A DNA stretch of 64,000 nucleotides, taken from positions 33,201 through 97,200 of the forward strand of contig QKAF01000027.1 of NCBI GenBank assembly GCA_003246455.1, in the 5' to 3' direction. The stretch's first letter is position 1. Every line of letters starts with the position of its first letter. Origin of the DNA: Bacteroidota bacterium (lineage in GTDB: Bacteria > Bacteroidota > Ignavibacteria > SZUA-365). Positions 3,597 through 27,832 of this stretch are shown piece after piece. A program made the position numbers and the translations under genes. Below the pieces are notes generated by a model, which worked only from the letters and a program-made list of their open reading frames with translations, did no database searches and was not told the origin of the DNA.

Positions 3597-4670
3597 TTAC
3601 CCTTCGGGAAGCACTGCGCCGGTGGTCCAGTACAGGACGCGGTTGCGGAATCGCTGCTCGGTTTCATGCAGGAGCGGGTGGTCCTGCGGAAGCGGGGGGT
3701 GACTGCCGTCGAAGAAGCGGCCGACGGCATCGATGATTTCGGTGGCCTGGTCGTGCGAGAACAGCGCGGTTCGCAGTTCGTTCGCTCCGTCGAACCGCCG
3801 TGCGTACCAGAGGGCGTGCTTCCGCATGCGGGGGATGGCCCGGAAGGCGCCGAATTCGCGGAGCATGCTTTCGAGATGCCCCGTGGCCAGCTCCTGGATC
3901 GCGGCGATATCCGGCGCACTGTCCCCGACGCCGCAGCTGCGGCCCCGGGCGATGTCGTCGAAAATCCATGGCGTACCGAGGCAGCCGCGCGCCACCATCA
4001 CCGCGGTGCAGCCGGTTTCACGCATCATGCGGGCAGCGTCCGCGGAGGAGAAGACGTCTCCGTTCCCGACGACGGGGACTGAAACGGCGTCGACCGCTTC
4101 GGCGATCGCTTCCCATCGCGCCGCGACGTCATACGGAGTGTTCCGCGAGCGGGCGTGAACCGTGATCAGCGACGCGCCGCCATCCTCCGACGCACGGGCG
4201 ATATCGCGGACACCCTGCCGGGTGTCAGTGCCGCGCATGCGAATTTTTACCGAAATCGGAACCGACGAAGCATTTGCCGCCGCGCGGAGGATTGAGGCGA
4301 AGCGCGGAAGGTCGTCGAGGAGATCGGCCCCGGCCCCCGCCTCGCAGATTCGCTCGTTCGGGCATCCGCAGTTGATATCGAAGAGGTCGGGCTTGAACGG
4401 CAGCAGTTCACGTATGGCCGCTGCGGTTTTGTCGGGTTCGGCCGCCACGAGCTGGATGCCGATAGGGTGTTCTTCCGGAGTGAATACCGCGTTGCGGTAC
4501 GAGGTGGATGCGGCGCGCAAAATCCCCGCGGCACTGACCATCTCGGTGAACGTCAACGCTGCCCCGTAATTTCTGCAGACGTTACGGAAAGGGATATCCG
4601 TCGTCGCGAGCATCGGCGCGAGTATTCCTTTCCCCTTGATTTTATTGATGATATCTGCAGGTTCCATCAT
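3597..4670 (-). CDS. dus: tRNA-dihydrouridine synthase (Dus family).
   Basis: TIM-barrel Dus motifs: MLATTDIPFR, FDINCGCP, and a basic C-terminal tRNA-binding domain. Start chosen at MMEPAD. The longer table ORF start at 4865 is rejected. Confidence 0.8.
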   Translation of the reverse strand: MMEPADIINKIKGKGILAPMLATTDIPFRNVCRNYGAALTFTEMVSAAGILRAASTSYRNAVFTPEEHPIGIQLVAAEPDKTAAAIRELLPFKPDLFDINCGCPNERICEAGAGADLLDDLPRFASILRAAANASSVPISVKIRMRGTDTRQGVRDIARASEDGGASLITVHARSRNTPYDVAARWEAIAEAVDAVSVPVVGNGDVFSSADAARMMRETGCTAVMVARGCLGTPWIFDDIARGRSCGVGDSAPDIAAIQELATGHLESMLREFGAFRAIPRMRKHALWYARRFDGANELRTALFSHDQATEIIDAVGRFFDGSHPPLPQDHPLLHETEQRFRNRVLYWTTGAVLPEG

Positions 4671-8820: not shown

Positions 8821-9735
8821 ATGAAAGGACGCTACAACACGCTGATCGGTTCCTTTCTCGTCGCCAGTGCGTTCTGGTTCTCCGTGACGATGAGCGGGAC
8901 GTTTCGGACGCATTTCGATGTGCCGCTGATCGTTACCAACATGCCGCGCGATATCGCCCTGGTTTCGGCGCTGCCGAAAAGCGTGGACGTGCTCCTCCAG
9001 GCCAACGGCTGGCAGCTGTTGTTCATGACCGCCGGAAAGCAGATGGCGTTCGAGATTCCGGGGAGCCGGCTGCGCGCGGGAGTCATACAGACCAACCGCG
9101 CCCTGAACGAGGTGATGCAGCTGCCGGCAGGGGTGACGGCCATGCGCGTCTATCCGGAAACCCTGTTCGTGCAGGTCGACCGCTTCATGAAGAAGACCGT
9201 GCCGCTGCAGCACGCATCCGTTTCGATGAAATTCAAGGACGGGTTCGGCATGCTGGGCGAACCCGAGCTCACGCCGGACTCCGTCACGCTGAGCGGCGCC
9301 GAACGCATTCTCCGGCAAATCAAATCCTGGCCGGTGGAGAGCCGGAGCTACACCGAGCTTTCAATTCCGGTCGCGGAGGATATCAAAGTCAAGGATTCGC
9401 TTCCGGGCGTTATTCGATACAATCTCGACAAGGTCAATCTGTACATTCCGACCGAACAGCTTGCCGACATGTGGTTCCGCGGCGTCCGTGTTCAGGTGAA
9501 GCACGTGCCGGAAAACCGCGAGGTGCTGCTCGGGCAGCAGACGATAGACGTTTCCGTGCGTGGCGGCGTCAACGTGCTCTCCCTCTATACCGCACAGGAT
9601 ATTTCGGTCGCGATCGAGTTTGACGACATCGTCGCCGATACGTCCGGAACGATCATTCCGACCCTTACGCTTCCGGACAAGCTCCGGCTGCTGAAGATGG
9701 ATCCTCCCGCGATTCGCTATACGCTGCGGAAGTAG
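8821..9735 (+). CDS. YbbR-like domain protein (CdaR-like).
   Basis: N-terminal TM (LIGSFLVASAFWFSV) followed by repeated YbbR-type beta-rich modules. Start at MKGRYN. No diadenylate cyclase gene is adjacent. Confidence 0.55.
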   Translation: MKGRYNTLIGSFLVASAFWFSVTMSGTFRTHFDVPLIVTNMPRDIALVSALPKSVDVLLQANGWQLLFMTAGKQMAFEIPGSRLRAGVIQTNRALNEVMQLPAGVTAMRVYPETLFVQVDRFMKKTVPLQHASVSMKFKDGFGMLGEPELTPDSVTLSGAERILRQIKSWPVESRSYTELSIPVAEDIKVKDSLPGVIRYNLDKVNLYIPTEQLADMWFRGVRVQVKHVPENREVLLGQQTIDVSVRGGVNVLSLYTAQDISVAIEFDDIVADTSGTIIPTLTLPDKLRLLKMDPPAIRYTLRK

Positions 9736-9797
9736 GCAGGAGGCCGTGGTGACGTAGGGGCGAGCCAGCGGCTCGTCCATGCGCAGGAGGCAGGAGA
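9736..9797. repeat. REP-like intergenic element, copy 1 (core GTAGGGGCGAGCCAGCGGCTCGTCCATG).
   Basis: About 50 nt near-identical to 27283..27334. Contains a hairpin CGAGCC-agc-GGCTCG. Confidence 0.5.
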
Positions 9798-9832: not shown

Positions 9833-9866
9833 AAAAAGGGCAACCTGGAACCAGGGTGCCCTTTCT
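9833..9866. terminator. Bidirectional rho-independent terminator-like hairpin between YbbR-like (+) and the DUF1015-like gene (-).
   Basis: AAGGGCAaCCTGG-aa-CCAGGgTGCCCTT. The T-run is on the minus-strand reading. Confidence 0.45.
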
Positions 9867-9883: not shown

Positions 9884-11125
9884 TCAGTCGAGGAAATGCA
9901 CGAAAAGTCCGTCGCGCAGTTTCGGTTCGAACCAGGTCGATTTGGGAGGCATGACCTGTCCGGCATCCGCGATGGCCATCAGTTCGTTGATGGACGTCGG
10001 GTACATGCTGAAGGCGACTTTCATTTCGCCGGAGTCGACGCGGCGTTCGAGTTCGCCGAGGCCGCGGATTCCGCCGATGAAATCGATACGCTTGTCCGTA
10101 CGCGGATCCTGGATGCCCAGCACCGGGTTGAGAATATAATTCTGCATGATCGCGACATCGAGCCGCTGCACCGGATCCGGATTCTCGAGAAGAGCCGCAC
10201 CCGCTTCGAGCAGGTACCATTTCCCGTCCATGTACATGCCGAACGTTCCCTTCCTCGGAGGACGCACCTGGCCATCCGCGGGCGTGAGCGTGAAGCGTTC
10301 CCCGAGACTGGCCATGAACGCCTCCTCGGTCAGACCGTTGAGGTCCTTCACGACCCGGTTGTAGTCCATGATGCGGAGCTGCGCGGCAGGAAAAACGACG
10401 GCGAGATAGAAATTATATTCTTCGTCACCGGAATGCGCGGGATTCGCCTGCGCGCGTTCCCGCCCGACGATGGCGGCGGCGGCGGAACGGTGGTGTCCGT
10501 CGGCCACGTACAGATTCGGCACCGCGGCGAACAACTGCTGCAGGCGCGCGATGGTGTCTCTGTCGCTGATGACCCAGGTCTGATGGCGGATACCGTCGGC
10601 GGCGAGGTGGTCGGTGGTCGCGGGAGTGCTGCGTACCGTGTCGACAAGCGCGTCGATCTCCGGATTATCAGGATAGGTCAGGAAGATCGGTCCCGTGTGG
10701 GCATTGGTGACCCGCACGTGATTGCAGCGATCCTCTTCCTTGTCCTTGCGCGTGAATTCATGTTTTTTGATGGTGTCGTTCCAGTATTCTTCGACCGCGG
10801 CGCAGCCCACGAGGCCGTACTGCGTGTGCTCGCCCATGGTCTGCGCGTACAGATACATGTTCGCTTCGCTGTCCTGGAACAGGACGCCGTCATCGATCAG
10901 CTTCTGCAGATTCTCGCGGCCTTTTTCATAGACCTGCGCGTCATGAATATCGACGGCGGGATCGAGGTCCACTTCGGGTTTGCCGATGTGGAGGAAAGAG
11001 AGAGGATGTCCTTTTACTTCTTCCCGGGCTTCGTCGGAGTTGAGAACGTCATACGGTTTTGCGGCCACTTCCGCTGCAAATTCTGGTTTCGGACGAAACG
11101 CCCGAAAGGGACGAAATGTTGCCAT
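9884..11125 (-). CDS. Conserved hypothetical protein, DUF1015-like.
   Basis: 413 aa. The adjacency to serA/serC is typical for DUF1015 in the FCB group. Family assignment from memory only. Confidence 0.5.
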   Translation of the reverse strand: MATFRPFRAFRPKPEFAAEVAAKPYDVLNSDEAREEVKGHPLSFLHIGKPEVDLDPAVDIHDAQVYEKGRENLQKLIDDGVLFQDSEANMYLYAQTMGEHTQYGLVGCAAVEEYWNDTIKKHEFTRKDKEEDRCNHVRVTNAHTGPIFLTYPDNPEIDALVDTVRSTPATTDHLAADGIRHQTWVISDRDTIARLQQLFAAVPNLYVADGHHRSAAAAIVGRERAQANPAHSGDEEYNFYLAVVFPAAQLRIMDYNRVVKDLNGLTEEAFMASLGERFTLTPADGQVRPPRKGTFGMYMDGKWYLLEAGAALLENPDPVQRLDVAIMQNYILNPVLGIQDPRTDKRIDFIGGIRGLGELERRVDSGEMKVAFSMYPTSINELMAIADAGQVMPPKSTWFEPKLRDGLFVHFLD

Positions 11126-12318: not shown

Positions 12319-13404
12319 ATGGCTACGCGCGCACATAATTTCTTTGCCGGCCCCGCGATTCTTCCGGTGCCCGTCATCGAAGCCGCAAAGGAAGCAGCTT
12401 ACGATTTTGCCGGTCTCGGCATGTCCATCCTGGAGATCAGCCATCGCTCGAAGGAATTCGACGCCGTGGTGCAGAAAGCGCAGGCGGATGCGCTGGAGAT
12501 CATGGGCCTTTCGGCGGATGAATATGCCGTGCTCTTCCTCGGCGGCGGCGCCAGTACGCAGTTCGCGATGGTTCCGATGAACTTCCTCCGCACCAAGGCG
12601 GAGTATGTCAACACCGGTGAATGGTCGTCCAAGGCCATCAAGGAAGCGAAAATGATGGGTGAAACCATCGTCGCTGCTTCCAGCGAAGACGCCAACTTCA
12701 ACTACCTCCCGAAGAACATGGTGTTCTCCGGTGATGCGGACTACGTTCATTACACCTCGAACAACACGATCTACGGGACGGAATTCAAGGGAACGCCCGA
12801 AGTCGGGAACGTCCCGCTCGTCTGCGACATGTCGTCGGACATGCTGAGCCGCCAGCTCGATTACTCGAAATACAGCCTGATTTACGCCGGCGCGCAGAAG
12901 AATCTGGGCCCCGCGGGCGTGACGCTTGTCGTGATCAAAAAGGCGTGGGTCGAGGAGAAGGCGAAGACCGATATCCCGACGATGCTTCGCTACAAGACGC
13001 ATGTCGCGAAGGAATCCATGTTCAACACCCCGCCCGTGTTCCCGATCTACGTCGTCGGGCAGACGCTCGAGTGGATCAAGAACGAGGGCGGGCTCGCAGT
13101 GATCCAGGAACGCAACGAGAAGAAAGCCGCCCTGCTTTACGATCTTTTCGACGCCCACGCCGACTTCTATTCGGCCGCCGTTCCGAACAAGGAAGACCGC
13201 TCGCTGATGAACGTGACCTTCCGTCTCCCGAGCGAAGAGCTGGAAGTGAAGTTCATCGCCGAGGCGAAGGCGCAGCGGATGTACGGTCTCAAGGGACACC
13301 GTTCCGTCGGCGGCTGCCGTGCATCGATTTACAATGCCAGTCCCGTCGAGAGCGTCGAAGCCCTCGCGCGGTTCATGGAGAAATTCATGGCGGAGAACAA
13401 GTAA
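12319..13404 (+). CDS. serC: Phosphoserine aminotransferase.
   Basis: MATRAHNFFAGPAILP..., PLP class V. RBS aggag before the ATG. Confidence 0.85.
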   Translation: MATRAHNFFAGPAILPVPVIEAAKEAAYDFAGLGMSILEISHRSKEFDAVVQKAQADALEIMGLSADEYAVLFLGGGASTQFAMVPMNFLRTKAEYVNTGEWSSKAIKEAKMMGETIVAASSEDANFNYLPKNMVFSGDADYVHYTSNNTIYGTEFKGTPEVGNVPLVCDMSSDMLSRQLDYSKYSLIYAGAQKNLGPAGVTLVVIKKAWVEEKAKTDIPTMLRYKTHVAKESMFNTPPVFPIYVVGQTLEWIKNEGGLAVIQERNEKKAALLYDLFDAHADFYSAAVPNKEDRSLMNVTFRLPSEELEVKFIAEAKAQRMYGLKGHRSVGGCRASIYNASPVESVEALARFMEKFMAENK

Positions 13405-13495: not shown

Positions 13496-14452
13496 TCAGA
13501 CCACGCGGTGCGAGGGCTCGCGACCGTCGAGTACCGCGATGAGGTTGTCCGCGGCCATCACCGCCATCCGGTCGCGCGTCTCGATGGATGCGCTGCCGAT
13601 ATGCGGGAGCAGCACCGTGTTGGGCAGGGAGATCAGTTCTTCCGGGATGCGGGGTTCGTTCTCATACACATCGAATCCCGCCGCGAATATGCGCCGCTCG
13701 CGGAGCGCCTCGATCAGCGCGGCTTCATCGACCACCGGACCTCTCGCGGTGTTGACGAATACCGCCGACGGCTTCATCAGCGACAGCGCCCGCGCGTCGA
13801 TCATGTGGCGGGTCTCGGGTGTGAGGGGAACGTGAATCGAGATGAAATCGCTTTCCTTCAGCAGCGTATCGAGATCGGCATACAGCGCTCCCGATTCCGT
13901 TTCAAACGCATCGCTGCGGGTCCGGTTGTGATAGAGGATGCGCATGTCGAATCCGCCTTTCGCCTTCTTTGCAAGGGCGCGGCCGATGCGTCCAGCCCCG
14001 ATGATGCCGAGAGTTTTCCCGACGAGGTCCTGTCCGAGGAACAGCTTCGGAGCCCAGCCGTCGAACGCGCCGTTCCTCAGCCACGCATCGCTTTCAACGA
14101 TGCGGCGCGCACACGCGATCATCAGGGCGAAGGCGATATCCGCCGTCGCTTCCGTGAGAACACCAGGCGTGTTCGTGACGGCGATGCGGCGCGATGCCGC
14201 GGCGTCGGTATCGATGTTGTTGTACCCGACTGCATAGGTCGAAATGCACCGCAGCCGCGATGCTGCGGCGATCACCCCGGCATCGATCGGATCGGAAAGC
14301 AGGCAGACGAGTCCGTCGACTTCCCGCACCGCGGCCAGCAGTTCCTCTTTGGTGATCTGGCGATCATGTTCGAATACCGTGACGTCGTGGCGTTCTCGCA
14401 GACGCGTGATCCCGGCATCGGGGATGCTGCGGGTGATGAATATGCGGGACAT
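13496..14452 (-). CDS. D-2-hydroxyacid dehydrogenase family (glyoxylate/hydroxypyruvate reductase-like).
   Basis: NAD motif [16 protein letters not shown], catalytic R...E...H. Start at MSRIFITRS. Confidence 0.8.
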
Positions 14453-14500
14453 TTCGGTCTGACGGTTGTGAAACGAATATTTCGAAATGTAGGGACCGCG

Positions 14501-14532
14501 GCACAAAGGCACAAAAGCACAAAGGCACAGAG
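14501..14532. repeat. Tandem octamer repeat (GCACAAAG)x4 with minor variants.
   Basis: GCACAAAG GCACAAAA GCACAAAG GCACAGAG, located upstream of the dehydrogenase start. Confidence 0.4.
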
Positions 14533-14545
14533 GTGATAAAACGGG

Positions 14546-14584
14546 ATAAAAAAAGCGCCCGCGGTGTGAGTACCGCCGGCGCTG
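14546..14584 (-). terminator. Rho-independent terminator for the 14605..16650 gene.
   Basis: Minus-strand hairpin AGCGCCGGCGG...CCGCGGGCGCT followed by TTTTTTT. Confidence 0.5.
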
Positions 14585-14604
14585 AAGTCAGGAAGTGACG
14601 AGGA

Positions 14605-16650
14605 TTATTTCATCACGGTCATCTTCTTCTGGGTGACCTGACCGGCGACGTTGATCTGATAGATGTACGTACCGGAAGGCAGGTTCTCGGAGCTCATGTG
14701 CACCTGATGCGCACCCGCGTCCTTCATTTCGTCGACGAGCGTTCCGACCTGTTCGCCGAGAGCATTGAAGACCTTGAGGGTCACGTGCCCGGCCTGCATC
14801 AGCTGGTAGCTGATGGTCGTCGTCGGATTGAACGGATTCGGGTAGTTCTGGTACAGCGTCACCGCCGTCGGTGCTGCTTCGAAGAACACGTCCACCATCG
14901 GGGAATAGGCAGAGGTGCCGTCGTTGTCGACCTGGCGGAGGCGGTACTTCACGTTGCCCACGTTGCGGTGGGTTTCGGTGATCGCGTCCTTGAAACCGTA
15001 TGTCATCGGTTCGGTGGTGGTCCCGCGACCTTCGACGAAGCCGATCTTTTCCCAGCTGTCGCCGTTGTTGAAGCTGCGCTCGACCTCGAAACCGAAGTTG
15101 TTGGTTTCCATCGTGATGTCCCAGGTCAGGTCCACGTTCTCACCGTTGACGACGGCTTTGAAGGTGGAGAGTTCGACCGGGATGGTACGGCGCGAGCGAT
15201 AGGCCGCGATACCGTTGTTGGACATCAGGACATACAGGATCACGTGCAGACCGGGGAAGTCGGGATCTTCTTCGATCGTGTAGTATTTGAGCTTGTAATC
15301 GACGTCGGAGATATAGTTTTCCTCAGCCGAGTTGTTGTTGAGCGTCTTGTTTCCGAGCTGCGGCGTGGCGCCCCAGAACGCGAAATCCTGGCCCGGCGTG
15401 GTCACGTCAAGGATGCGGGCAGTCGTGTTGTCATTGGGGATCGTGGGGTCGATGCCACCGGTGGGACGGCCGTCTGCCAGCACGAGGAATTTGCGTCCGT
15501 ACTGCGGAAGTTCGAAATACGCCAGGGTGCCGGAGGCGCCTGTGAGCGAAGTCGACAGGGAGCGGTTACCGGTTGCGTTCTGGCTGTAGGTCTGGGGCCA
15601 GCCGGCGTTGAGGTTCTGAATTTCGGATGCGGAGGTGACCAGGCGCGGATTCGAATCCATCCAGACGTCGCTGAACGCCACCGTCGACGTCGCATCGATC
15701 GGTGTCGCGGCAACGCCGTGGGAGGCCAGACCGCTGATCGAGTTGACGAGCCGCACGGCAAGGCGGTATTCGAGTTTTCCGCCGCCGGTGACGTCGCGGT
15801 TGGGACGCTGCGCAGTCGGGCGCAGATCGGCGAGGATTACATCCACTTCGCGGTTCCACTCCGGCTGCGTCGGCCACGAGCCGCCCGAGGCATAAATGCG
15901 TACCGAGTCGACCAGGTACGGAGGATCGGGTGCCGGCGGGGTGTACATTGCGCGCTTGCCGACGACATCAAAGGCATCGCCCCAGCGCGTATAGCTCATT
16001 TCACTGCTGTTGATGTTTCCGACGGCAGTACCGCCCCCATTGAGCGTCGCATATGTCAACATCGGGGTGGCTTTGTCATCGTCCCAGCGCCAGACACGGA
16101 AGGGACCCTGTCCGAGATACACGGGATCGCACTGGCCGCTCGGCAGAAGGATGCAGATACCCCAGACCGGAACAACGAGGTTGCAGGCGAAAATACGGCC
16201 TTCGTCATCAAGATCGATGCGATAGAGGCAATACGTATTCTGCGAATAGCCGCGATTGGTGGTCGTGGGTGTGATCGTATCGATGGGTACGGCGAGCTCG
16301 CCGCCGAGTCCGCGGTTGATGGCGTCGGCGGAACGGCCAACGTTCAGTGCCGGCTGCCCGTTTTCCGCATTCCATGCGTAAATGCGCGGGGTCTGCCAGA
16401 ACGTCGGACCGGAAACAGTCGTGTGCGGGTTGACGATGTACACCACATCCCGCCACTTGTCATAGGCAAGTCCGGTGAACGACTTGCTCGGAATCATCCA
16501 TGCGTTGGGGTGATTCGGTTGCGTCGGGGGAGGGGGGACGTTGCGCCACAGCTCTTCCCAATCGATGTTGCCCTGCGCACTCATCTGCGCGGGCAGCATC
16601 GCCATGAGCAATGCGAGCATGCAGCCAGTAGTCAGTAGAATTTTCCTCAT
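14605..16650 (-). CDS. T9SS C-terminal-sorting-domain secreted protein (681 aa), paralog A.
   Basis: Signal peptide, then a C-terminal ~80-aa domain LYQNYPNPFNPTTTISYQL...GTYIYQINVAGQVTQKKMTVMK (TIGR04183-type). Confidence 0.75.
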   Translation of the reverse strand: MRKILLTTGCMLALLMAMLPAQMSAQGNIDWEELWRNVPPPPTQPNHPNAWMIPSKSFTGLAYDKWRDVVYIVNPHTTVSGPTFWQTPRIYAWNAENGQPALNVGRSADAINRGLGGELAVPIDTITPTTTNRGYSQNTYCLYRIDLDDEGRIFACNLVVPVWGICILLPSGQCDPVYLGQGPFRVWRWDDDKATPMLTYATLNGGGTAVGNINSSEMSYTRWGDAFDVVGKRAMYTPPAPDPPYLVDSVRIYASGGSWPTQPEWNREVDVILADLRPTAQRPNRDVTGGGKLEYRLAVRLVNSISGLASHGVAATPIDATSTVAFSDVWMDSNPRLVTSASEIQNLNAGWPQTYSQNATGNRSLSTSLTGASGTLAYFELPQYGRKFLVLADGRPTGGIDPTIPNDNTTARILDVTTPGQDFAFWGATPQLGNKTLNNNSAEENYISDVDYKLKYYTIEEDPDFPGLHVILYVLMSNNGIAAYRSRRTIPVELSTFKAVVNGENVDLTWDITMETNNFGFEVERSFNNGDSWEKIGFVEGRGTTTEPMTYGFKDAITETHRNVGNVKYRLRQVDNDGTSAYSPMVDVFFEAAPTAVTLYQNYPNPFNPTTTISYQLMQAGHVTLKVFNALGEQVGTLVDEMKDAGAHQVHMSSENLPSGTYIYQINVAGQVTQKKMTVMK

Positions 16651-16951: not shown

Positions 16952-18997
16952 ATGAACGCATGGTACAGGACCGTCGGGGTTTTCTCCCTTTTAGCGATAT
17001 TTCTGATTCAAAACGCCGCCGCTCAGGGCAACATCGACTGGGAGGAAGCTTGGAAACAGATGCCTCCCTTCGGACCGACGCCGCATCCCATGGCCTGGAT
17101 GAACGATTCCCTGTCCTACACCCGGCTGGCATACGACGAAACGCGCGACGTGCTGTACGTCGTGTCACCGCATCCAGCGGGGGGCGCGGGCTGGAGCGCG
17201 CCGGCAATCCACATCCTGGATCGACAGACCGGCCAACCGAGAATGGATATGGGACGCTCGGCCCATTTCGCGCGGCAGGGGCTGGGAGGAGAACTTCCCG
17301 TGCCGCTCGACACCTTCATCACAGTGAACAATAAAAACCTCGGCTTCGGAGATAACTGGTTCGCTCTCTACAGCATCGATGTGGACGAGGAGGGACGCAT
17401 CTATGCCTGCAATCTGGTCACGCCGGTCTGGGGTATCTGCAACCTTCTGCCCCAGGGCGGCTGCGACCCGATGTATCTCGGACAGGGACCTTTTCGCGTC
17501 TGGCGCTGGGATACCCCCACATCAACACCCGAACTGATCTATGCGACCTGTAACACGTCGCACACCGCGATCGGAAATATCAACTCGAGCGAAATGGCGT
17601 ATGCACGCTGGGGCGACACATTTTCCGTGACCGGGAAACGTGCGTGGTATCACCCCCCGCACGGCGGTCCCCCCGTCCTCGTTGACAGTACGCGCATCTA
17701 CGTGTCGGGGGGAGCCTCACCCGGCTCAGCGAATGGCCGCATCGCTGTCCTTCTCCCGGATGACCGCCCGGCGCCCCTGCGTCCAACACGTGATGTCATG
17801 GGAGGCGGAAACCTGAGTTTCAGGCTTGGTTTGCAGATCAACCTGCCCGCAAACTTTTTCGCCAACGGACTGGCTCCCGATCTGCTCACGGTTTCCGGGG
17901 ACACACTCGAACGGTGGATATGGCTTCAGAAGTACGGGCAAAACGTCATGAAAGTCCGGGAGCGACAGCTTCCCGGCGCACCCCTGCCGCAGACCCTTAC
18001 GCCGGCCGGCGGGGACGTCCTCATATACCCCGGCAGCTCGAGTCTTTTCGGTGCGAGCGGCGCGATGGAATTCATGCATCTCCCTCAATGGCAGCGCAGC
18101 TTCCTTGCGGTTGCCGACGGCCGTCCGACGGGAGGTTCGATTGTGTCGATTGCGAATGACAATACGACCGCACGATTCATAGATGTTACCGACTGGCGGG
18201 CTGCCTTCATGTTCTGGGGAGAGACGCCACAGCTCGGACAGGCGAATCAATGGTCCATCGAGCCGGATAATTATATCAGCGACGTGGATATGACGCTCTT
18301 CTATGACTCGGTGCACCCCGGACCGTACCCCCGGCTGCAGATGTTCGTGCTCATGACGAATAACGGCATTGCCTCATATCGCAGCAGGCCTCAATTTCCC
18401 GTGGAACTGCTGTCGCTCCGTGCACATCGCACGGCATCCGGGGCGGAAATTGAATGGACCGTCGCGGAGGAAGTGAACATCCAGCAGTACCAGGTGGAGC
18501 GGGGCGGGACGGAAAACGGCCCATGGGCGGTGGTCGGGACAGTCGCGGCGCGAGGCGGGACGGGGAACCTCTCGTATGCCATCGATGATGAAAATGCGGA
18601 GTGGAACGCGGGTCCTGCAGGCGACAAGGAACCGAGCGGGGGCATATGGTACCGTCTGACGGCGCTGCAATACGACGGATCGAAGCGGATATTCCCTCCC
18701 GTCATGGTGGAGCACACGGCGCAGCTTCTTCCGCTGCAGTGCGCGCTCTTCCCGCAGCCGGTTTCTTCGCAGGACGGTATGGTCTACCTGCGGCTGCAAT
18801 CGCCCGCAGCGGAGGATGTGTCGCTGCGCGTCGTCGATCTGCTCGGACAGGAAGTGCAGCCTGCACGCCAGTACACCGTCGGGGCAGGACGCACGCTTCT
18901 GCCGCTGCGGATCGGTGATGTTACGTCAGGGATTTATCTGATCGTCCTGAGAACGGGGAGCGGAGCGGTGCGAACGCAGCGCATGATCGTGCGTTAA
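16952..18997 (+). CDS. T9SS-type secreted protein (681 aa), paralog B of 14605..16650, divergently transcribed.
   Basis: Shared blocks QGNIDWEE, GRIxACNLVxPVWGICxLLPxGxCDPxYLGQGPFRVWRWD, INSSEM..RWGD. C-terminal CTD-like beta-sandwich ending LIVLRTGSGAVRTQRMIVR. Confidence 0.7.
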   Translation: MNAWYRTVGVFSLLAIFLIQNAAAQGNIDWEEAWKQMPPFGPTPHPMAWMNDSLSYTRLAYDETRDVLYVVSPHPAGGAGWSAPAIHILDRQTGQPRMDMGRSAHFARQGLGGELPVPLDTFITVNNKNLGFGDNWFALYSIDVDEEGRIYACNLVTPVWGICNLLPQGGCDPMYLGQGPFRVWRWDTPTSTPELIYATCNTSHTAIGNINSSEMAYARWGDTFSVTGKRAWYHPPHGGPPVLVDSTRIYVSGGASPGSANGRIAVLLPDDRPAPLRPTRDVMGGGNLSFRLGLQINLPANFFANGLAPDLLTVSGDTLERWIWLQKYGQNVMKVRERQLPGAPLPQTLTPAGGDVLIYPGSSSLFGASGAMEFMHLPQWQRSFLAVADGRPTGGSIVSIANDNTTARFIDVTDWRAAFMFWGETPQLGQANQWSIEPDNYISDVDMTLFYDSVHPGPYPRLQMFVLMTNNGIASYRSRPQFPVELLSLRAHRTASGAEIEWTVAEEVNIQQYQVERGGTENGPWAVVGTVAARGGTGNLSYAIDDENAEWNAGPAGDKEPSGGIWYRLTALQYDGSKRIFPPVMVEHTAQLLPLQCALFPQPVSSQDGMVYLRLQSPAAEDVSLRVVDLLGQEVQPARQYTVGAGRTLLPLRIGDVTSGIYLIVLRTGSGAVRTQRMIVR

Positions 18998-20931
18998 TCG
19001 ACGACCAGCTGCCGGATCTGCACGTCGCTGCCGCTGACAAGCTGAAGTGTATAGATGCCGCGTGAGAGTGCACGACCGTCAAACTGAATCGTGTGTGTCC
19101 CTGCGGTCAGATCGCCGCTGTGTATCATCGCCACCCGGCGGCCGAGGAGATCGCAGACGCAAAGCGAGGCGCGTAGGTTTCGGCCAGCTTCGAGGCGAAC
19201 GGCCAGCAGACCGTCCCGCTGCGGGGAGTAGGGGTGGGGATAGAGATCCGTCAGAAACACGTCCGGGCGCGGGACAGGGACGTCCTCGACGTTCACCGTG
19301 CGGTAGGAAAGCCGTTTGAGAACGATATTCCGCGGATCGAGGACGATATTCTTCACCTCTGTCGCGGGGATTTCGGGAAACGCGAATTCCTGCATATCGA
19401 CGGCGTCGGTGCTGATGCGCTTCCACAGCGTATCACCGGCATTGCGGATGATGATCAGATCCATCGGCATTCTGAAGAGAGGATACTTCGCCTGATCCTG
19501 CGTCTGGAGCAGGCGGACCCGGAGCGGCGCGCCGCTGTCATCGAGGACGCGCTGCAGCGTGTACTCCGGCCATCCGGCCGCGATCACCCATTCATCAAAG
19601 AACCACGCGAGATCCGCTCCGTGGAATTCTTCCATGACCTGACGGAGCGCACCGGTGGTCGCGTTTCCGTACGCATGGCGCTGGCCGTATGCACGAAGCC
19701 CGTCGAAAAAGTTCGCGTCACCCATGACGTCGCGAAGCATGGCCATCACGGCTCCGCCCTTGTGGTAGATCGTCGACGGGTAATTCGAGGAGGGAGCGGT
19801 TCGCGGGAAATCAAAGAGCGGGAAGACGCCCTCGTTGCGCGCATCGGAAATCCGATAGGTCTGGCCAGTGCTGCGAACGGCTTCGACATACGCGTCCGTT
19901 CCGCCAAGATGCTCGGCATACAGCATTTCGCTGAAAACGGCAAACCCTTCGTTCAGCCACACGTCGCGGAAGTCGGCACAGGTAACCCAGTCACCCCACC
20001 ACATGTGCGAAAGTTCGTGCGCCGCGGTCGTCCCTGCTTCGGAAAGGCCCGAAAACAGCTGCGCCGCGTAGCTGATCATCGTCTGGTGTTCCATCGATCC
20101 GATCGGGGTGATGCAGTACCCGATCTTGTCGAAGGGATACGCGCCGAAACGCTGCGTGAACACATCCATCATGCCGCCGACAGTGGCGAAATACTGCACG
20201 GCGCGCAGGGAATCCGCGCGGGGGACGTAGTACTGCATGGGGATGCCGTTCCACGCATCCTCGACGAGCGCGTAGTCGCTTATTGCGTAGGTGAAGAGAT
20301 AGGTGGCGGTCGGGTGATTCTCCGCCCAGCGCCAGGTGCTTCTGCCGCCGGCGGATGAATGGTCGACCATCAGCCCCGTGCCCGCGACGGTCATTCCGTC
20401 AGGCACGATGAAGGAGACGTCGAAGGTCGCCTTGTCGGCAGGGATGTCGTTTGACGGCAGCCACCGGCGCATCATCGATACGTCGGGATCGGTGAATCCC
20501 ACGCCCATGAAATACGTCACGCTGCCCCAGTGACAGCCGCCCCAGGGGAAGCTGCCGCCCTCGTTCCCGGGTGAACCCGAGTACTGGATCCGGATTTCCG
20601 TTGTGTCTCCCGGAGCGAGCGCCGCGGGGAGATCCACCGTGAGGACGATGCGATCATAGGTGTTGGGCGCAATCATCCCGTACACGAAGCTCTTTACCGT
20701 GGCCGTTTCCATATCAACCAGGTCGAGCGGAATCTGCTGCAGATCGCCGTTCGAAGCGTTGCGTATCGTGAGTGTCGCATCGCCGGTGATGCGATTCTGC
20801 GTGAGGTCGAAGTCGACCTCCGCGCGATAATGCACGACATCGATATCCGGCGACTCGGCGAGAAGCGGAAGGGGGCTCAGGAAAAGAACGAGGAGGATCT
20901 GGAGAATGCGCATGGCTGCAGGACTCTTCAT
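18994..20931 (-). CDS. M1-family zinc aminopeptidase with T9SS C-terminal sorting domain.
   Basis: HELSHMWWGD...NEGFA (HExxH-x18-E gluzincin motif). C-terminal CTD (HTIQFDGRALSRGIYTLQL...). Confidence 0.85.
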   Translation of the reverse strand: MKSPAAMRILQILLVLFLSPLPLLAESPDIDVVHYRAEVDFDLTQNRITGDATLTIRNASNGDLQQIPLDLVDMETATVKSFVYGMIAPNTYDRIVLTVDLPAALAPGDTTEIRIQYSGSPGNEGGSFPWGGCHWGSVTYFMGVGFTDPDVSMMRRWLPSNDIPADKATFDVSFIVPDGMTVAGTGLMVDHSSAGGRSTWRWAENHPTATYLFTYAISDYALVEDAWNGIPMQYYVPRADSLRAVQYFATVGGMMDVFTQRFGAYPFDKIGYCITPIGSMEHQTMISYAAQLFSGLSEAGTTAAHELSHMWWGDWVTCADFRDVWLNEGFAVFSEMLYAEHLGGTDAYVEAVRSTGQTYRISDARNEGVFPLFDFPRTAPSSNYPSTIYHKGGAVMAMLRDVMGDANFFDGLRAYGQRHAYGNATTGALRQVMEEFHGADLAWFFDEWVIAAGWPEYTLQRVLDDSGAPLRVRLLQTQDQAKYPLFRMPMDLIIIRNAGDTLWKRISTDAVDMQEFAFPEIPATEVKNIVLDPRNIVLKRLSYRTVNVEDVPVPRPDVFLTDLYPHPYSPQRDGLLAVRLEAGRNLRASLCVCDLLGRRVAMIHSGDLTAGTHTIQFDGRALSRGIYTLQLVSGSDVQIRQLVVD

Positions 20932-22624: not shown

Positions 22625-23995
22625 TCAGCGTTTTCCGCGGACGAGATTTTTCAGCGCCCGCACTTCATTTTCATCGAGATAGCGCCATGCGCCGCGCTTG
22701 AGTCGGGCAAGCGACAGTCCCGCATAGCTGATGCGGTCGAGTTTACGCACGTCATACCCGAGTGTTTCAAACATGCGCCGCACCTGACGGTTTCGTCCTT
22801 CATGGATGGTCAGTCCCACGACCATGCCCTGCGGGCTGTCGAGAACCTCCGCATCGCAGGGTGCGGTCATGCCGTCTTCGAGCTTGATCCCTCTCCGCAG
22901 CGCCTGGATGTCCTGCGGTTTCACCTTCGTCGAGACCTCGACGATGTAGTTCTTCGGCGCATTGAAGCGCGGATGCATGAGCTTGTTCGCCAGGTCGCCG
23001 TCATTCGTCAGCAGCAGAGCGCCCGTGGTGTTGCGGTCGAGTCGGCCGACGGGATAGACATGATGCTCGGCGGGTATGAGCTCCATGACCGTGCGCCGTC
23101 CCATGTCATCGTCGGTGGTGGTGATGCAGTCTTTCGGCTTGTTGAGCAGGATGTAGTAAAGCTGCGACTGGATATACACCGGTGTGCCCCGGACGCTGAT
23201 CTCGTCCCGGTCAGGATGCACCTTCATTCCGAGTTCGGTCACCACCTTCCCGTTGACGCGAACCACACCCGCTTCGATCAGGCCGTCGGCCTTGCGCCGC
23301 GCTGCGACCCCTGCCTCGGCAAGAAACTTGTTGAGGCGCATCTCGCTTTCGACTTCCCGTACCGCTGCGGTCTGCCGACGCGGTCTGTTCTTGCCCGTCT
23401 CACGCTGAAGCCGGCTGTGTGCCTGCTCCGTCGATTTACGCTTGATGCCGTGGCCGCCCTGCGGTGCCTGCCGCTTCGCGCCGCCGCTCCTGGGAGCCGC
23501 CGCGTGCGTGCGTTTCGCCGCAACCTCGTGCGCAGCTGCGCCTCCGTGCGCCGCGGTTCCAGAAGATCGCCGCGGCCGGCTGCTGTGCTGCGTCGCAGCC
23601 GAAGACCGCCGGGTTCCGCCGTGCGAAGGGGATCCGGACGACCTCCGGGGACCGCCTGCATGCGGCCCCGTACCGGAAGATTTCCGGGGACCGCCTGTAT
23701 GCGACCCTGCGCCTGAGGAATGCCCGGGGCTGCCGCCATGCGGGCCCGCGCCGGAAGAATGCCTGGGACCGCCGCCGTGCGGTCTCGTACCGGAAGATTT
23801 CCGGGGACCGCCTGCATGCGACCCTGCGCCTGAGGAATGCCTGGGGCTGCCGCCGCGTGACGGGGTGCCGGAAGGGCGACGCGAACCGCCGCCGTGTGCT
23901 CCCGCACCGGACGAGCGTTTCGCTCCGCCGCCACGTGATGCGGTGCCGGAGCTTCGTTTGGGATTGCCGCGCGGTGCGTGGGGTTTGCCTGCCAT
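22625..23995 (-). CDS. rluB: 23S rRNA pseudouridine synthase RluB with a ~215-aa Arg/Gly/Ser-rich repetitive N-terminal extension.
   Basis: S4 domain plus RsuA/RluB catalytic core (MRLNKFLAEAGVASRR..., VGRLDRNTTGALLLTNDG). N-terminal region of degenerate tandem repeats (HSSGAGSHAGGPRKSSGT...). Confidence 0.8.
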   Translation of the reverse strand: MAGKPHAPRGNPKRSSGTASRGGGAKRSSGAGAHGGGSRRPSGTPSRGGSPRHSSGAGSHAGGPRKSSGTRPHGGGPRHSSGAGPHGGSPGHSSGAGSHTGGPRKSSGTGPHAGGPRRSSGSPSHGGTRRSSAATQHSSRPRRSSGTAAHGGAAAHEVAAKRTHAAAPRSGGAKRQAPQGGHGIKRKSTEQAHSRLQRETGKNRPRRQTAAVREVESEMRLNKFLAEAGVAARRKADGLIEAGVVRVNGKVVTELGMKVHPDRDEISVRGTPVYIQSQLYYILLNKPKDCITTTDDDMGRRTVMELIPAEHHVYPVGRLDRNTTGALLLTNDGDLANKLMHPRFNAPKNYIVEVSTKVKPQDIQALRRGIKLEDGMTAPCDAEVLDSPQGMVVGLTIHEGRNRQVRRMFETLGYDVRKLDRISYAGLSLARLKRGAWRYLDENEVRALKNLVRGKR

Positions 23996-25452
23996 CAGAT
24001 CATCTCCTGTTCGTCGGGACTTTCATCATCAAACGGCGTGTGCTCAGCGGAGAAGTCATCATCACCGCTGATATCGTCGTCAATCATCGTTTCGATTTCG
24101 TCGTCCGTTTCAGATTCGTCCGGCGGGTTGTTCATCCCGCTGGCTTCGTCTTCACCCACCGTTTCGGAATCTCCATCCGCGCCGTTCTCATCCGGCAGAT
24201 CGTCGAACTGCACGTGAAGCACCGGCGCCGAAATCGGGGCATCATCTTCCTGGGCGCCGCTGTCGATCGCCGGATCCTCATCCGTTTCCGCGTCATCGGC
24301 GACAGCGTCATCAGCGACAGCGTCATCGGCGACAGCGTCATCGGCGACAGCGTCATCGGCGACAGCGTCTTCCGGATCACCACTGCGGTCCTGTTCCCGC
24401 AGGCGCGCGTTGTCAAAGAGACGCTCGAGTTCCTGCGAGGATACGCGGGTGAGTGCCGCAGCCTTGTCCGGATCCATCTCGTCGATCGGATTGACCGACA
24501 GCTCTTCCTCGGAGGAAAGCAGGTCCTTGATCTCCCGGGGTTTCGGGAGATCGTTGATGCTGCTGAGGCCGAAGTGCTTCAGGAAGGTTTTCGTTGTGCC
24601 GTAGAGCAGCGGACGTCCCGGACTGTCTTCGCGCCCGACAATGGAAATGAGATTCCGCTCGAGCAGGGATTTGACCACATGGTCGGCATTCACACCGCGG
24701 ATGCCTTCCACCGCGGGCTTGCTGATCGGCTGACGGAAGGCGATGATCGACAGGGTTTCGAGCGCGCTCTGGGTGAGGCGCCGGCGCGAACGTTCCGCGA
24801 ACAGGCGGCCGACCCACGCCCCGTACTCACCGGTGGTCTGAAACGCGAAGCCGCCGGAAACCTCGATGATACGGAACGACCGGCCGCTGTCTGAATACGC
24901 GTCATTGAGCCAGTCGATCGCGCGTTTGACCCGCGTGATCGTCAGCCGCGGCGTTTTCCTTCGCCGCCCGCGCGTGGGCGCGGTTTCTTCCTCGACAGTT
25001 TCCTCGTCCCCGGTTTCATTCGGGGCAAGCAGTTCCTTGATCTGCTTGAATGTCAGAGGCTCATCCGAGGCGAAGATCAGTGCCTCGAGAATGCCGCGGA
25101 ATTCCGGATCCTCTTCGGCATCGTCGTCATCCTCCGCGCCGTCCTCGTCCGCGACTCCTTCCGGAGCAGGGGCTGTCGGTTTCGCATCCGCGGTCTCCTC
25201 CGCGGCCGGCGCCGCTTCTTCGACGAGCGCGTCCGAGACGGAATCCTCTTCCGGAGCCGGTTCCGTTTCTTCCGCCTGCGCGGGTTCGGCGTTTGCTTCC
25301 TGCGCCGGGACGGGCGCGGTTTCTTCCGCCGGCGTCATGTCGACGCTTTCGGCGGCGTCGGTGCCCGGGACGATTTCCGTCACGGCGGCATCTTCCGCCG
25401 CGGCGTTCACATCAGGCCGTTGGGGCTTCAGTTTTTTCTTTTTCTTCTTCAT
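23995..25452 (-). CDS. scpB: Segregation and condensation protein B with long acidic N- and C-terminal extensions.
   Basis: Core LEALIFASDEPL...SGGFAFQT...RPISKPAVEGIRGVNADHVVKSLLERNLI...GRPLLYGTTKTFLKHFGL. Contains a (DDAVA)x5 pentapeptide repeat. Its stop overlaps the rluB start (TGATG). Confidence 0.75.
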   Translation of the reverse strand: MKKKKKKLKPQRPDVNAAAEDAAVTEIVPGTDAAESVDMTPAEETAPVPAQEANAEPAQAEETEPAPEEDSVSDALVEEAAPAAEETADAKPTAPAPEGVADEDGAEDDDDAEEDPEFRGILEALIFASDEPLTFKQIKELLAPNETGDEETVEEETAPTRGRRRKTPRLTITRVKRAIDWLNDAYSDSGRSFRIIEVSGGFAFQTTGEYGAWVGRLFAERSRRRLTQSALETLSIIAFRQPISKPAVEGIRGVNADHVVKSLLERNLISIVGREDSPGRPLLYGTTKTFLKHFGLSSINDLPKPREIKDLLSSEEELSVNPIDEMDPDKAAALTRVSSQELERLFDNARLREQDRSGDPEDAVADDAVADDAVADDAVADDAVADDAETDEDPAIDSGAQEDDAPISAPVLHVQFDDLPDENGADGDSETVGEDEASGMNNPPDESETDDEIETMIDDDISGDDDFSAEHTPFDDESPDEQEMI

Positions 25453-26208: not shown

Positions 26209-27201
26209 TCAGCCCAGTTTCATTGCATCGTGGACGGCGGCCATCGTTTCTCGCGCGACGGTGCGCGCGCGTTCCTCGCCGCTTCGGAGGATGTCCTCGA
26301 CGAGCGCCGGATTTTCCTCGTACGGTTTCCGCCTTTCGATATGCGGAGCAAGGAATTCGTTGATCGTCGCGCCGCAGCGTTTTTTGCAATCGACGCAGCC
26401 GAGCTCTCCGGATTCGCAGCCCTGGCGGATCTCCGCGGTTTCGCCGGGATTGAATTTCTCATGATACGTGAAAATGAGACAGACGTCGGGACGGCCCGGA
26501 TCGTTGCGCCGCACTTTCTGAACGTCCGTCGGGGCCTTGCGGAGCTTCTGCTCGACGATTGCCGGCTCGTCAGACAGAAGGATCGTGTTGTTCATGGACT
26601 TGGACATCTTCCGGTCCTTGCCGTCGAGTCCCGGCAGCCGTGCGAACTTCGTCAGCTTGGGCTCCGGTTCCGGAAACACCTCACCCCAGGTGCTGTTGAA
26701 CCGGCGCGCGATCTCGCGCGTGATCTCCACGTGCGACAGCTGGTCTTCGCCCACCGGGACGAGTTCGCCGCGATACAGAAGAATGTCGGCGGCCTGCAGC
26801 ACGGGATACCCGAGATGGCCGTACACGATGTTTTCGATTTCGAGATCGCGCACCTGTTCCTTGATGGAAGGATTGCGCTCGAGCCGGCTTTTCGTGATCA
26901 GCATGGAGAAGATCAGGTGCAGCTCCGTGTGCTCCTTGATCTGCGACTGCCGGAACACCGGGCTCTTCTCCGGATCGATCCCGCCCGCCAGCCAGTCGAT
27001 CACCATATCCACGGTATTCTGATACAGTCCGCTGGTGTCAAGATTGGTGGTCAGCGCGTGATAGTCGGCGACCAGGTGATAGTTGTTATAGGACTCCTGC
27101 AGGGCGACCCAGTTCTCCAGCGCTCCGGTCCAGTGGCCGAGGTGCAGTTTGCCCGTAGGGCGCATCCCGCTCAGGATGGTTTTTTTTCGCGGTTCATTCA
27201 T
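26209..27201 (-). CDS. trpS: Tryptophan--tRNA ligase.
   Basis: HIGH-type motif GKLHLGHW and KMSKS. 330 aa. Confidence 0.9.
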   Translation of the reverse strand: MNEPRKKTILSGMRPTGKLHLGHWTGALENWVALQESYNNYHLVADYHALTTNLDTSGLYQNTVDMVIDWLAGGIDPEKSPVFRQSQIKEHTELHLIFSMLITKSRLERNPSIKEQVRDLEIENIVYGHLGYPVLQAADILLYRGELVPVGEDQLSHVEITREIARRFNSTWGEVFPEPEPKLTKFARLPGLDGKDRKMSKSMNNTILLSDEPAIVEQKLRKAPTDVQKVRRNDPGRPDVCLIFTYHEKFNPGETAEIRQGCESGELGCVDCKKRCGATINEFLAPHIERRKPYEENPALVEDILRSGEERARTVARETMAAVHDAMKLG

Positions 27202-27282
27202 GGCGTAAGATTGTCAGCGGAACATACATCTTGTAAAGATATGAAACCGAAGGGCAGAGTTGAAAGGGGAAAGGAAGTTTGG

Positions 27283-27334
27283 CAGCAGGCCGTAGGGGCG
27301 AGCCAGCGGCTCGTCCATGGGCAGGAGGTCAGGC
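27283..27334. repeat. REP-like intergenic element, copy 2.
   Basis: Near-identical to 9736..9797. Overlaps the HNH gene stop codon. Confidence 0.5.
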
Positions 27335-27832
27335 CATGAAGAGATAGGGTTTCCAGAGTTCCTCGACGGCGTGGGCCGACTGGACGATGAAGGACACGCG
27401 TGACGGACGGCGCGGGACGCTTTTGAGGGTCATGCCGGCGCGTTCCGGTGTATGATCGCGTTTGCGGTTGTTGCAGGGCAGGCAGGCGGTGACGAGGTTT
27501 TCCCAGCTGTCCTTTCCGCCGCGCGCGCGGGGGATAATGTGGTCGACAGTCAGCGGAGCACTGGTCCCGCCGCAGTACTGGCAGCGATGGCCGTCGCGCC
27601 GCAGAATGTTTTTCCGCGAAAGGATGACATTCTTGAACGGGACGCGTTTGTAATGGGAGAGACGGATGACACTGGGGAAGGGGTAGGGGGCGTTGACGGT
27701 GCGGATTTTGCGAAGGGGGTTCTCGATGACGATATCCGCTTTTTCGAGATACAGAAGAATTACGGCCTTCTGCACGCTGCAGACACTGAGCGGTTCGTAA
27801 CTCTGGTTCAGGACGAGAACGCGACCGCTGAT
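27329..27832 (-). CDS. Small HNH endonuclease (cyanobacterial-type HNH family). N-terminus extends upstream of the first canonical start.
   Basis: HRCQYCG...LTVDHIIPRARGG..WENLVTACLPCN. The conserved N-terminal block RVLVLNQSYEPLSVCSVQKA continues in-frame upstream of the GTG at 27775. The only family-consistent initiator is an ATC at ~27832. The in-frame stop is at ~27887. Confidence 0.65.
   Translation of the reverse strand: MSGRVLVLNQSYEPLSVCSVQKAVILLYLEKADIVIENPLRKIRTVNAPYPFPSVIRLSHYKRVPFKNVILSRKNILRRDGHRCQYCGGTSAPLTVDHIIPRARGGKDSWENLVTACLPCNNRKRDHTPERAGMTLKSVPRRPSRVSFIVQSAHAVEELWKPYLFMA

Follow-up and report, generated by a model that had tools for sequence, protein, structure and literature searches.

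A GTAG-tagged palindrome found twice in a Bacteroidota contig is a probable GTAG REP of low copy number

Results

Two copies of a short repeat lie next to stop codons

The window (the whole 64-kb stretch of DNA analysed) carries two copies of a short palindromic element, both singletons in the same orientation and 17.5 kb apart (Table 1). Copy 1 is located between the convergent YbbR-like and DUF1015 genes and copy 2 between the co-oriented HNH gene and trpS. The YbbR-like assignment is marginal (Pfam YbbR, 22.8 bits versus a cut-off of 22.3), and the HNH domain was matched at E 3e-16. Both copies are extragenic, with 0-1 nt separating them from a stop codon. In copy 1, the shared segment begins with the final base (9735) of the YbbR-like stop TAG (9733-9735), and in copy 2 it ends at 27328, next to the HNH stop codon (27329-27331, - strand). 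A sequence-only reading had named both neighbours correctly but had let copy 2 overlap the HNH stop codon, which the shared segment adjoins and does not contain. The first intergenic region also has a terminator-type hairpin, distinct from the element.

An identical 29-nt core, CGTAGGGGCGAGCCAGCGGCTCGTCCATG, is present at 9753-9781 and 27291-27319 on the + strand, and together with the following (C/G)GCAGGAGG the copies match at 37 of 38 nt (97% identity; family D11 in the repeat search of the window). Searching the window with a 26-nt sub-core and allowing up to three mismatches returned exactly these two matches, versus none in 100 dinucleotide-preserving shuffles, and chance is excluded as the origin of the repeat. 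The ~50-nt element noticed in the sequence-only reading is therefore a genuine repeat at both places. The indel between the copies, read there as 6 nt, measures 8 nt: GGTGACGT at 9748-9755 (equivalently GTGGTGAC) is present in copy 1 and missing from copy 2, and since it sits between two CGT triplets, a slippage deletion or insertion accounts for it. The substitutions are C/G after CATG and, on the left side, G/C in the flanking unit (GGCAGGAGG in copy 1, GGCAGCAGG in copy 2). Similarity stops at the flanking units, beyond which the alignment of the two copies is noise; on the left, a possible extra 6 nt (GGAAGT) common to both falls within the YbbR-like coding end in copy 1.

Table 1. Positions of the palindromic element, its neighbours and other features in the window, in related genomes and in a phage contig
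Feature	Sequence	Position	Strand	Remarks
YbbR-like gene	window	8821-9735	+	
Copy 1, left flanking unit	window	9735-9743	+	GGCAGGAGG, heptamer-tract type; first base is the last of the YbbR-like stop
Copy 1, body	window	9744-9782	+	CCGT; extra 8 nt GGTGACGT (9748-9755); GTAG (9754-9757); stem-loop; tail ATGC
Copy 1, stem-loop	window	9758-9778	+	5' arm GGGCGAGCC 9758-9766; loop AGC 9767-9769; 3' arm GGCTCGTCC 9770-9778
Copy 1, right flanking units	window	9783-9796	+	GCAGGAG GCAGGAG, two heptamers (GCAGGAGGCAGGAG)
Terminator-type hairpin	window	9835-9864		
DUF1015 gene	window	9884-11125	-	
Octamer array	window	14500-14533		(GGCACAAA)x4; versus a much longer (GACACACA/GGCACAGA)n in L005
T9SS-type paralogs	window	14605-16650; 16952-18997	-; +	681 aa each
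Inverted repeat in the T9SS paralog pair	window	16082-16227 / 17366-17511		77% complementary
M1 peptidase gene	window	18994-20931	-	
Tandem repeats inside long ORFs	window	23616-23911; 24290-24369	-	
trpS	window	26209-27201	-	
Conserved trpS-upstream block	window; L005; L008; L009	27202-27268; 395-465; 4030-4075; 4240-4305		
Copy 2, left flanking unit	window	27281-27289	+	GGCAGCAGG; left edge of the 48-nt graph node, judged from the start of L050
Copy 2, body	window	27290-27319	+	CC; GTAG (27292-27295); stem-loop; tail ATG; lacks the 8 nt of copy 1
Copy 2, stem-loop	window	27296-27316	+	5' arm GGGCGAGCC 27296-27304; loop AGC 27305-27307; 3' arm GGCTCGTCC 27308-27316
Copy 2, right flanking unit	window	27320-27328	+	GGCAGGAGG; right edge of the node, judged from the ends of L001 and L002
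HNH gene	window	27329-27775	-	
Tandem arrays in relatives	L005; L008; L010	13310-13400, 18124-18211, 337-375; 3975-3995; 5300-5450		
Related palindrome	L005	13258-13290		TTGACGTAGGGACGAGCCAACGGCGCGGCCAT
Related palindrome	L010	5471-5503		CGTAGGGGCGAAC..GTTCGCCCCTACG
GTAG-GGGGCG hairpins	L058 (phage)	2102-2130; 4002-4030		one intergenic, arms nearly identical to the window element

Among the other features of the window, two divergent paralogous genes encode secreted proteins with T9SS-type C-terminal sorting domains and share an inverted repeat, and the product of the M1 peptidase gene beside them has a similar C-terminal tail. Of the two tandem repeats inside long - strand ORFs, one has a period of 39/117 nt (~2-5 copies, 72-83% matches) and the other a period of 15 nt (5.3 copies, 96%); both probably encode low-complexity repetitive protein segments. 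A 24-nt repeat (D20, at 35151 and 47311) was rejected as a relative of the element, being coding sequence unrelated to it.

Each copy folds into a GTAG-tagged hairpin on the + strand

Each copy consists of an unpaired GTAG immediately 5' of GGGCGAGCC-AGC-GGCTCGTCC, which forms a stem of nine pairs, including one G.T, around a 3-nt loop. The hairpin first described as CGAGCC-AGC-GGCTCG exists, and its true stem is longer; in copy 1 it can be extended to ~15 interrupted pairs. In agreement with the structured element suspected at the outset, RNA folding showed that the + strand of both copies is more stable than its shuffles, with -28.6 kcal/mol (z -2.8) for copy 1 and -29.7 kcal/mol (z -4.4) for copy 2. 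The corresponding values for the - strand were -17.2 kcal/mol (z about -0.6) and -15.8 kcal/mol (z about -0.8), and DNA folding parameters left the ranking of the strands unchanged. The far better folding of the + (GTAG) strand is due to the G.T pair. An apparently "compensatory" C/G change was discarded, as these positions pair in different registers in the two copies, and covariation analysis is meaningless with only two near-identical copies.

Terminator and promoter scans found neither signature in the element. The tails 3' of the hairpins (ATGCGCAGG and ATGGGCAGG) contain no U/T run of the kind that would make them intrinsic terminators. No Rfam family matched the window at gathering thresholds, and none matched the palindromic body at E<=10 in a search around both copies; the tRNA/tmRNA scan was also negative. 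Besides the element, the hairpin search of the window returned ordinary terminator-type hairpins and no further REP-like ones.

The copies are opposite in sense relative to the local transcripts: copy 1 is in sense with the YbbR-like mRNA, and copy 2, found ~80-130 nt upstream of trpS, is antisense to the strand that carries HNH and trpS. Over 1-32 kb the + strand is rich in G, a GC skew that would make the GTAG strand the template of lagging-strand synthesis but is too weak to use.

The copies sit in heptamer tracts, which the closest relative carries at both orthologous sites

Both copies are set within GGCAG(G/C)AGG...GCAGGAGG units. Syntenic loci of relatives were retrieved via the M1-peptidase gene, which lies midway between the copies. 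The syntenic metagenome-assembled genomes (MAGs) bear the label Bacteroidetes or Bacteroidota, and the more distant matches include Candidatus Kapaibacterium. The best match and closest relative, L005 (JACZJN01; 77% amino-acid identity in the M1 peptidase), is a Bacteroidota MAG and Kapabacteria-like.

At the site of copy 2, the palindrome is missing from all three relatives compared: L005 carries (GGCAGGAG)n there, L008 a single CAGGAGG followed by (ATGACAG)3, and L009 neither. At the site of copy 1, L005 has a (GCAGGAG)n tract of ~90 nt, within which the contig ends, and L009 has no element. Across 825 kb comprising the window and the fetched loci, some of which duplicate the window, heptamer tracts of at least two units were found at both orthologous sites of L005 and in the flank of copy 1; the remaining matches were two isolated two-unit ones in the distant MAGs L027 and L048. 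The presence of tracts at both L005 sites indicates that the heptamers are older than the near-identical palindromes, which, from this comparison of sequences, look like later arrivals inside pre-existing tracts. Since the element is missing from the readable orthologous sites of relatives, it is not a conserved regulatory site.

Next to trpS, a block running from gagttgaaaggg to taaagatatgaaac (+ strand) is conserved in four genomes, and the DNA beyond it is unalignable. Its - strand reads TTTC-N20-TATCTTTA, plausibly a Bacteroidota-type -33/-7 promoter, and the element is located outside it. The regulatory role that the sequence-only reading had offered as an alternative finds no support here: the element is missing at the readable sites of L005, L008 and L009, lies outside the trpS block, and has opposite transcript sense in its two copies.

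Intergenic short-period tandem arrays recur in this lineage and differ in length between relatives, with three tandem units of ~37 nt in L010, (ATGACAG)3 in L008 and (GCAGGAG)n in L005. The octamer array of the window presents, on the - strand, repeated TTTG motifs directly upstream of the gene at 13496-14512. Upstream of trpS in L005, positions 1-300 contain no HNH gene and have instead a short opposite-strand ORF that is antitoxin-like by eye (VKTISANELKTRGV...), so the HNH gene is a variable insertion at this locus.

Related palindromes occur at a third locus of relatives and in phage contigs

A model built on the two window copies only matched L005 at 13258-13290 with E 0.005. This sequence has the TGACGTAGGG of copy 1 with a decayed stem. 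L010 has, at the corresponding place downstream of the T9SS-paralog gene, a cluster, GATAGGGGCGAACA CGTAGGGGCGAAC ACGCAG GTTCGCCCCTACG, which includes a perfect 13-bp palindrome (z -4.6) and is the only direct plus inverted arrangement seen in a relative. The equivalent interval of the window, 14513-14604, contains no copy.

Viral sequences yielded further instances. GTAGGGGCGAGCC-N3-GGCTCG is present in seven viral contigs, and the viral palindrome GGGCGAGCC-N3-GGCTCGCCC is immediately preceded by GTAG at three of six independent loci, where ~1% would be expected by chance. The tag is also found on the related palindromes of L005 and L010. The phage contig L058 (IMGVR_UViG_3300025459_000431), which encodes portal and capsid proteins, carries CGTAGGGGCGAGCCGTTGGCTCGTCCC with the same wobble as the window element, and a second hairpin, GTAG-GGGGCGAAC, whose different stem is read in frame inside a 340-aa ORF (VVGANGVRPF). 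GTAG palindromes of this type evidently invade phage genomes as well. The copy-specific right junction gave no match in the viral scan.

Assembly graphs branch at copy 2

No 31-mer is repeated in the k=31 graph that underlies Logan contigs (PMC12424806). Exact-protein look-up identified contigs of the same strain in two runs (SRR7216773 and ERR2179510). The HNH contigs L001 and L002 both stop at ...CCTCCTGCCCATGGACGAGCCGCTGGCTCG, and the trpS contig L050, from two samples, begins at GCCGCTGGCTCGCCCCTACGGCCTGCTGCC, so that each enters the segment 27281-27328 by exactly 30 nt (k-1). Contig ends at k-1 show that these 48 nt, which comprise the palindrome and its flanking units on either side, form a separate node that branches on both sides. 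Copy 1, which is read through in contig L051, cannot cause the branching because it has only 29 nt in common with copy 2. The branching hints at one or more further copies identical to copy 2 over 48 nt (at least one), or at polymorphism of the flanking heptamer number in the population. The element also accounts for the break that short-read assemblies of this organism show between the HNH gene and trpS.

Wider searches for copies and for a transposase

Two copies were counted in the 64-kb window. Among 185,579 GTDB species genomes, no exact match was found to the 22-base GGGGCGAGCCNNNGGCTCGTCCATG, a pattern made over-specific by the family-atypical tail TCCATG. In JGI metagenomes, the exact 21-mer CGAGCCAGCGGCTCGTCCATG had two matches, both coding (an SDR-like and an ABC-ATPase-like gene), and these were rejected as copies of the element because they are coding coincidences. 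For the ABC-type gene, the coincidence is explained by the Walker-B peptide DEPLA, which written in GC-rich codons is itself a DNA palindrome (GACGAGCCGCTGGCTCG), and the - strand of the core encodes MDEPLAR; with 241 million records scanned for an exact 21-mer, one such match is expected. A weak test for a Y1 transposase, tblastn with E. coli RayT and IS200 TnpA queries, detected none in the window or the fetched loci.

Discussion

The element probably belongs, with a low copy number, to the GTAG-REP superfamily, here represented in an uncultured, Kapabacteria-like Bacteroidota lineage. It is a real repeat of an already known kind, and what is new is its occurrence in such a lineage. The fold of its + strand, the tag, the stem, the loop and the position all fit the published description of GTAG REPs (PMC3733652). 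The REP-like character suspected in the sequence-only reading is supported in part, by the tag, the palindrome with its G.T pair and loop, the extragenic 3'-end position, the absence from the sites of relatives and the related palindromes; it is weakened by the count of two copies in 64 kb, both singletons, with no further REP-like palindrome in the window, by the weak negative for a Y1 transposase in the window and fetched loci, and by the fact that heptamer-number polymorphism would equally produce the graph branching. For the fuller account, in which a low-copy GTAG REP whose folded + strand serves as an HuH/Y1 substrate entered the two heptamer tracts by recent copying and acts at most as a passive 3'-UTR hairpin at copy 1, we put the chances at about even.

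Under this account, the two window copies would be recent duplicates (37/38 nt), copied into pre-existing (GCAGGAG)n tracts that lie directly 3' of ORFs. Most likely, an IS200/IS605-type HuH tyrosine transposase (RAYT/TnpA-REP) with its gene elsewhere in the genome would have mobilised the single strand in folded form, and template switching between the tracts would be the fallback. Once inserted, the element would probably be a passive hairpin. Copy 1 follows the YbbR-like stop and precedes the terminator, so its transcript would be of the strand that folds well and could form a barrier at the 3' end; any transcript across copy 2 would be of the strand that folds poorly.

The alternative that survives best, possible though doubtful, is a one-off segmental copy between (GCAGGAG)n tracts by gene conversion or template switching on heptamer microhomology, with neither an enzyme nor a family involved. 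Such an event would account for the same heptamer-type units bounding both copies with similarity stopping there, for the tracts already present at both L005 loci and for a count of only two copies in 64 kb. It does not account for the related GTAG-GGGGCGA palindromes that L005 and L010 have at a third locus, away from the tracts, for a tag and stem build that fits a known mobile superfamily and recurs in phage contigs, or for a graph node that branches in two samples. The GGAAGT match in the YbbR-like coding end looks as if some flank had been co-copied, but it stands in a purine-rich context and requires an indel.

More ambitiously, the palindrome could be a tiny mobile unit that targets, or seeds and maintains, (GCAGGAG)n tracts, as part of a GTAG-GGGGCG superfamily spread across uncultured FCB-group bacteria and environmental phages, some phage copies being read in frame within genes. 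We consider this unlikely; if true, it would mean that mobilisation is still going on and is directed at an unusual kind of target, a tandem repeat, in a phylum outside the GTAG REPs of the 2013 survey.

It is less probable again that the element is a selected cis element, that is, a protein-binding site or an RNA hairpin (3'-end stabiliser, attenuator or sRNA) acting on the YbbR-like gene, HNH or trpS. The significant folding of the + strand RNA, the place of copy 1 in the probable YbbR-like 3' UTR upstream of the terminator hairpin, and the distance of copy 2 from trpS would suit such a role; yet the element is missing in L008, in L009 and at site 2 of L005 although the adjacent trpS promoter-like block is kept, the local transcripts at copy 2 come from the - strand, which folds poorly (z -0.8), and the element has neither an Rfam match at E<=10 nor a promoter or terminator signature. 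That the copies are decayed fragments of an ABC gene is scarcely credible: the - strand translation LL(R/P)MDEPLARPY does resemble an ABC-ATPase Walker B, and a 23-nt stretch is identical in an ABC-type gene of metagenome contig L004 (8849-8871), but the similarity spans ~12 codons only, the 8-nt indel breaks the frame, and the copies are bounded by heptamer repeats without further coding similarity.

If the assignment to the GTAG-REP superfamily were confirmed genome-wide, the range of GTAG-type REPs would extend to a Bacteroidota/Kapabacteria-like lineage represented by MAGs only, which would imply the same for RAYT-like single-strand transposition, and a case of a REP within a microsatellite tract would be added, bearing on the target choice of REPs. 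The finding changes no gene annotation and opens no long-standing question.

Comparison with known systems

Heptamer arrays of the STRR type in cyanobacteria were reportedly described by Mazel et al. in 1990. The intergenic heptamer and octamer arrays of the present lineage, (GCAGGAG)n, (GGCACAAA)n and (ATGACAG)n, are similar to these; the likeness concerns the flanks and not the palindrome, and the phylum is another one and the unit sequences are unrelated. With MITEs, the element has in common that a short palindrome without coding function stands between direct repeats of 8-9 nt (GGCAGSAGG), the arrangement that a target-site duplication (TSD) would leave. The GGCAGSAGG repeats are the same at both sites and indistinguishable from the pre-existing heptamer tract of L005, so they need not stem from a duplication. 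The body, one palindrome throughout, measures 30-39 nt, far below the usual size of MITEs. REP dimers and BIMEs differ by their alternating orientation at regular short spacing, which the window singletons lack.

Substrates of REPtron/RAYT (TnpA-REP) systems are folded single-stranded imperfect palindromes after GTAG (Nunvar 2010, PMC2817692; Corneloup 2021, PMC8266576), and the element resembles them. The strand asymmetry caused by the G.T pair would suit a single-strand substrate of this type, a likeness in mode of working only. In a REPtron, the cognate HuH/Y1 transposase gene stands between inverted REPs of the same genome. GTAG REPs are associated with RAYT genes (PMC3733652; PMC2817692; PMC8266576).

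GTAG REPs have an unpaired terminal GTAG on a palindromic unit of 20-40 bp, with stems of 6-13 bp, loops often of 2-3 nt and frequent G.T pairs; they occur as singletons or dimers, and singleton-dominated families have been described (PMC3733652). They favour convergent or unidirectional intergenic regions near ORF 3' ends, with intragenic copies too (PMC3733652). Like the GTAG REPs of S. maltophilia (SMAG), E. coli and Pseudomonas (Di Nocera, De Gregorio & Rocco 2013, PMC3733652), the element combines GTAG with a GC-rich stem-loop, is extragenic at stop codons between convergent or unidirectional ORFs, and is variably present among relatives. It differs in the number of copies seen, two in 64 kb with a third suggested by the assembly graph versus tens to hundreds, and in occurring as singletons only; classical REP families exceed 100 copies per genome (PMC2817692). 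Its Kapabacteria-like Bacteroidota host lies outside the reported phyla, as the 2013 survey reported no GTAG REPs from Bacteroidetes or Chlorobi (PMC3733652). Some GTAG REP families are inserted in a specific short repeat, namely T. roseum GTAG-23 and A. variabilis GTAG-15 (PMC3733652), and the present element likewise sits inside a short target-like repeat, here a heptamer microsatellite instead of a palindrome.
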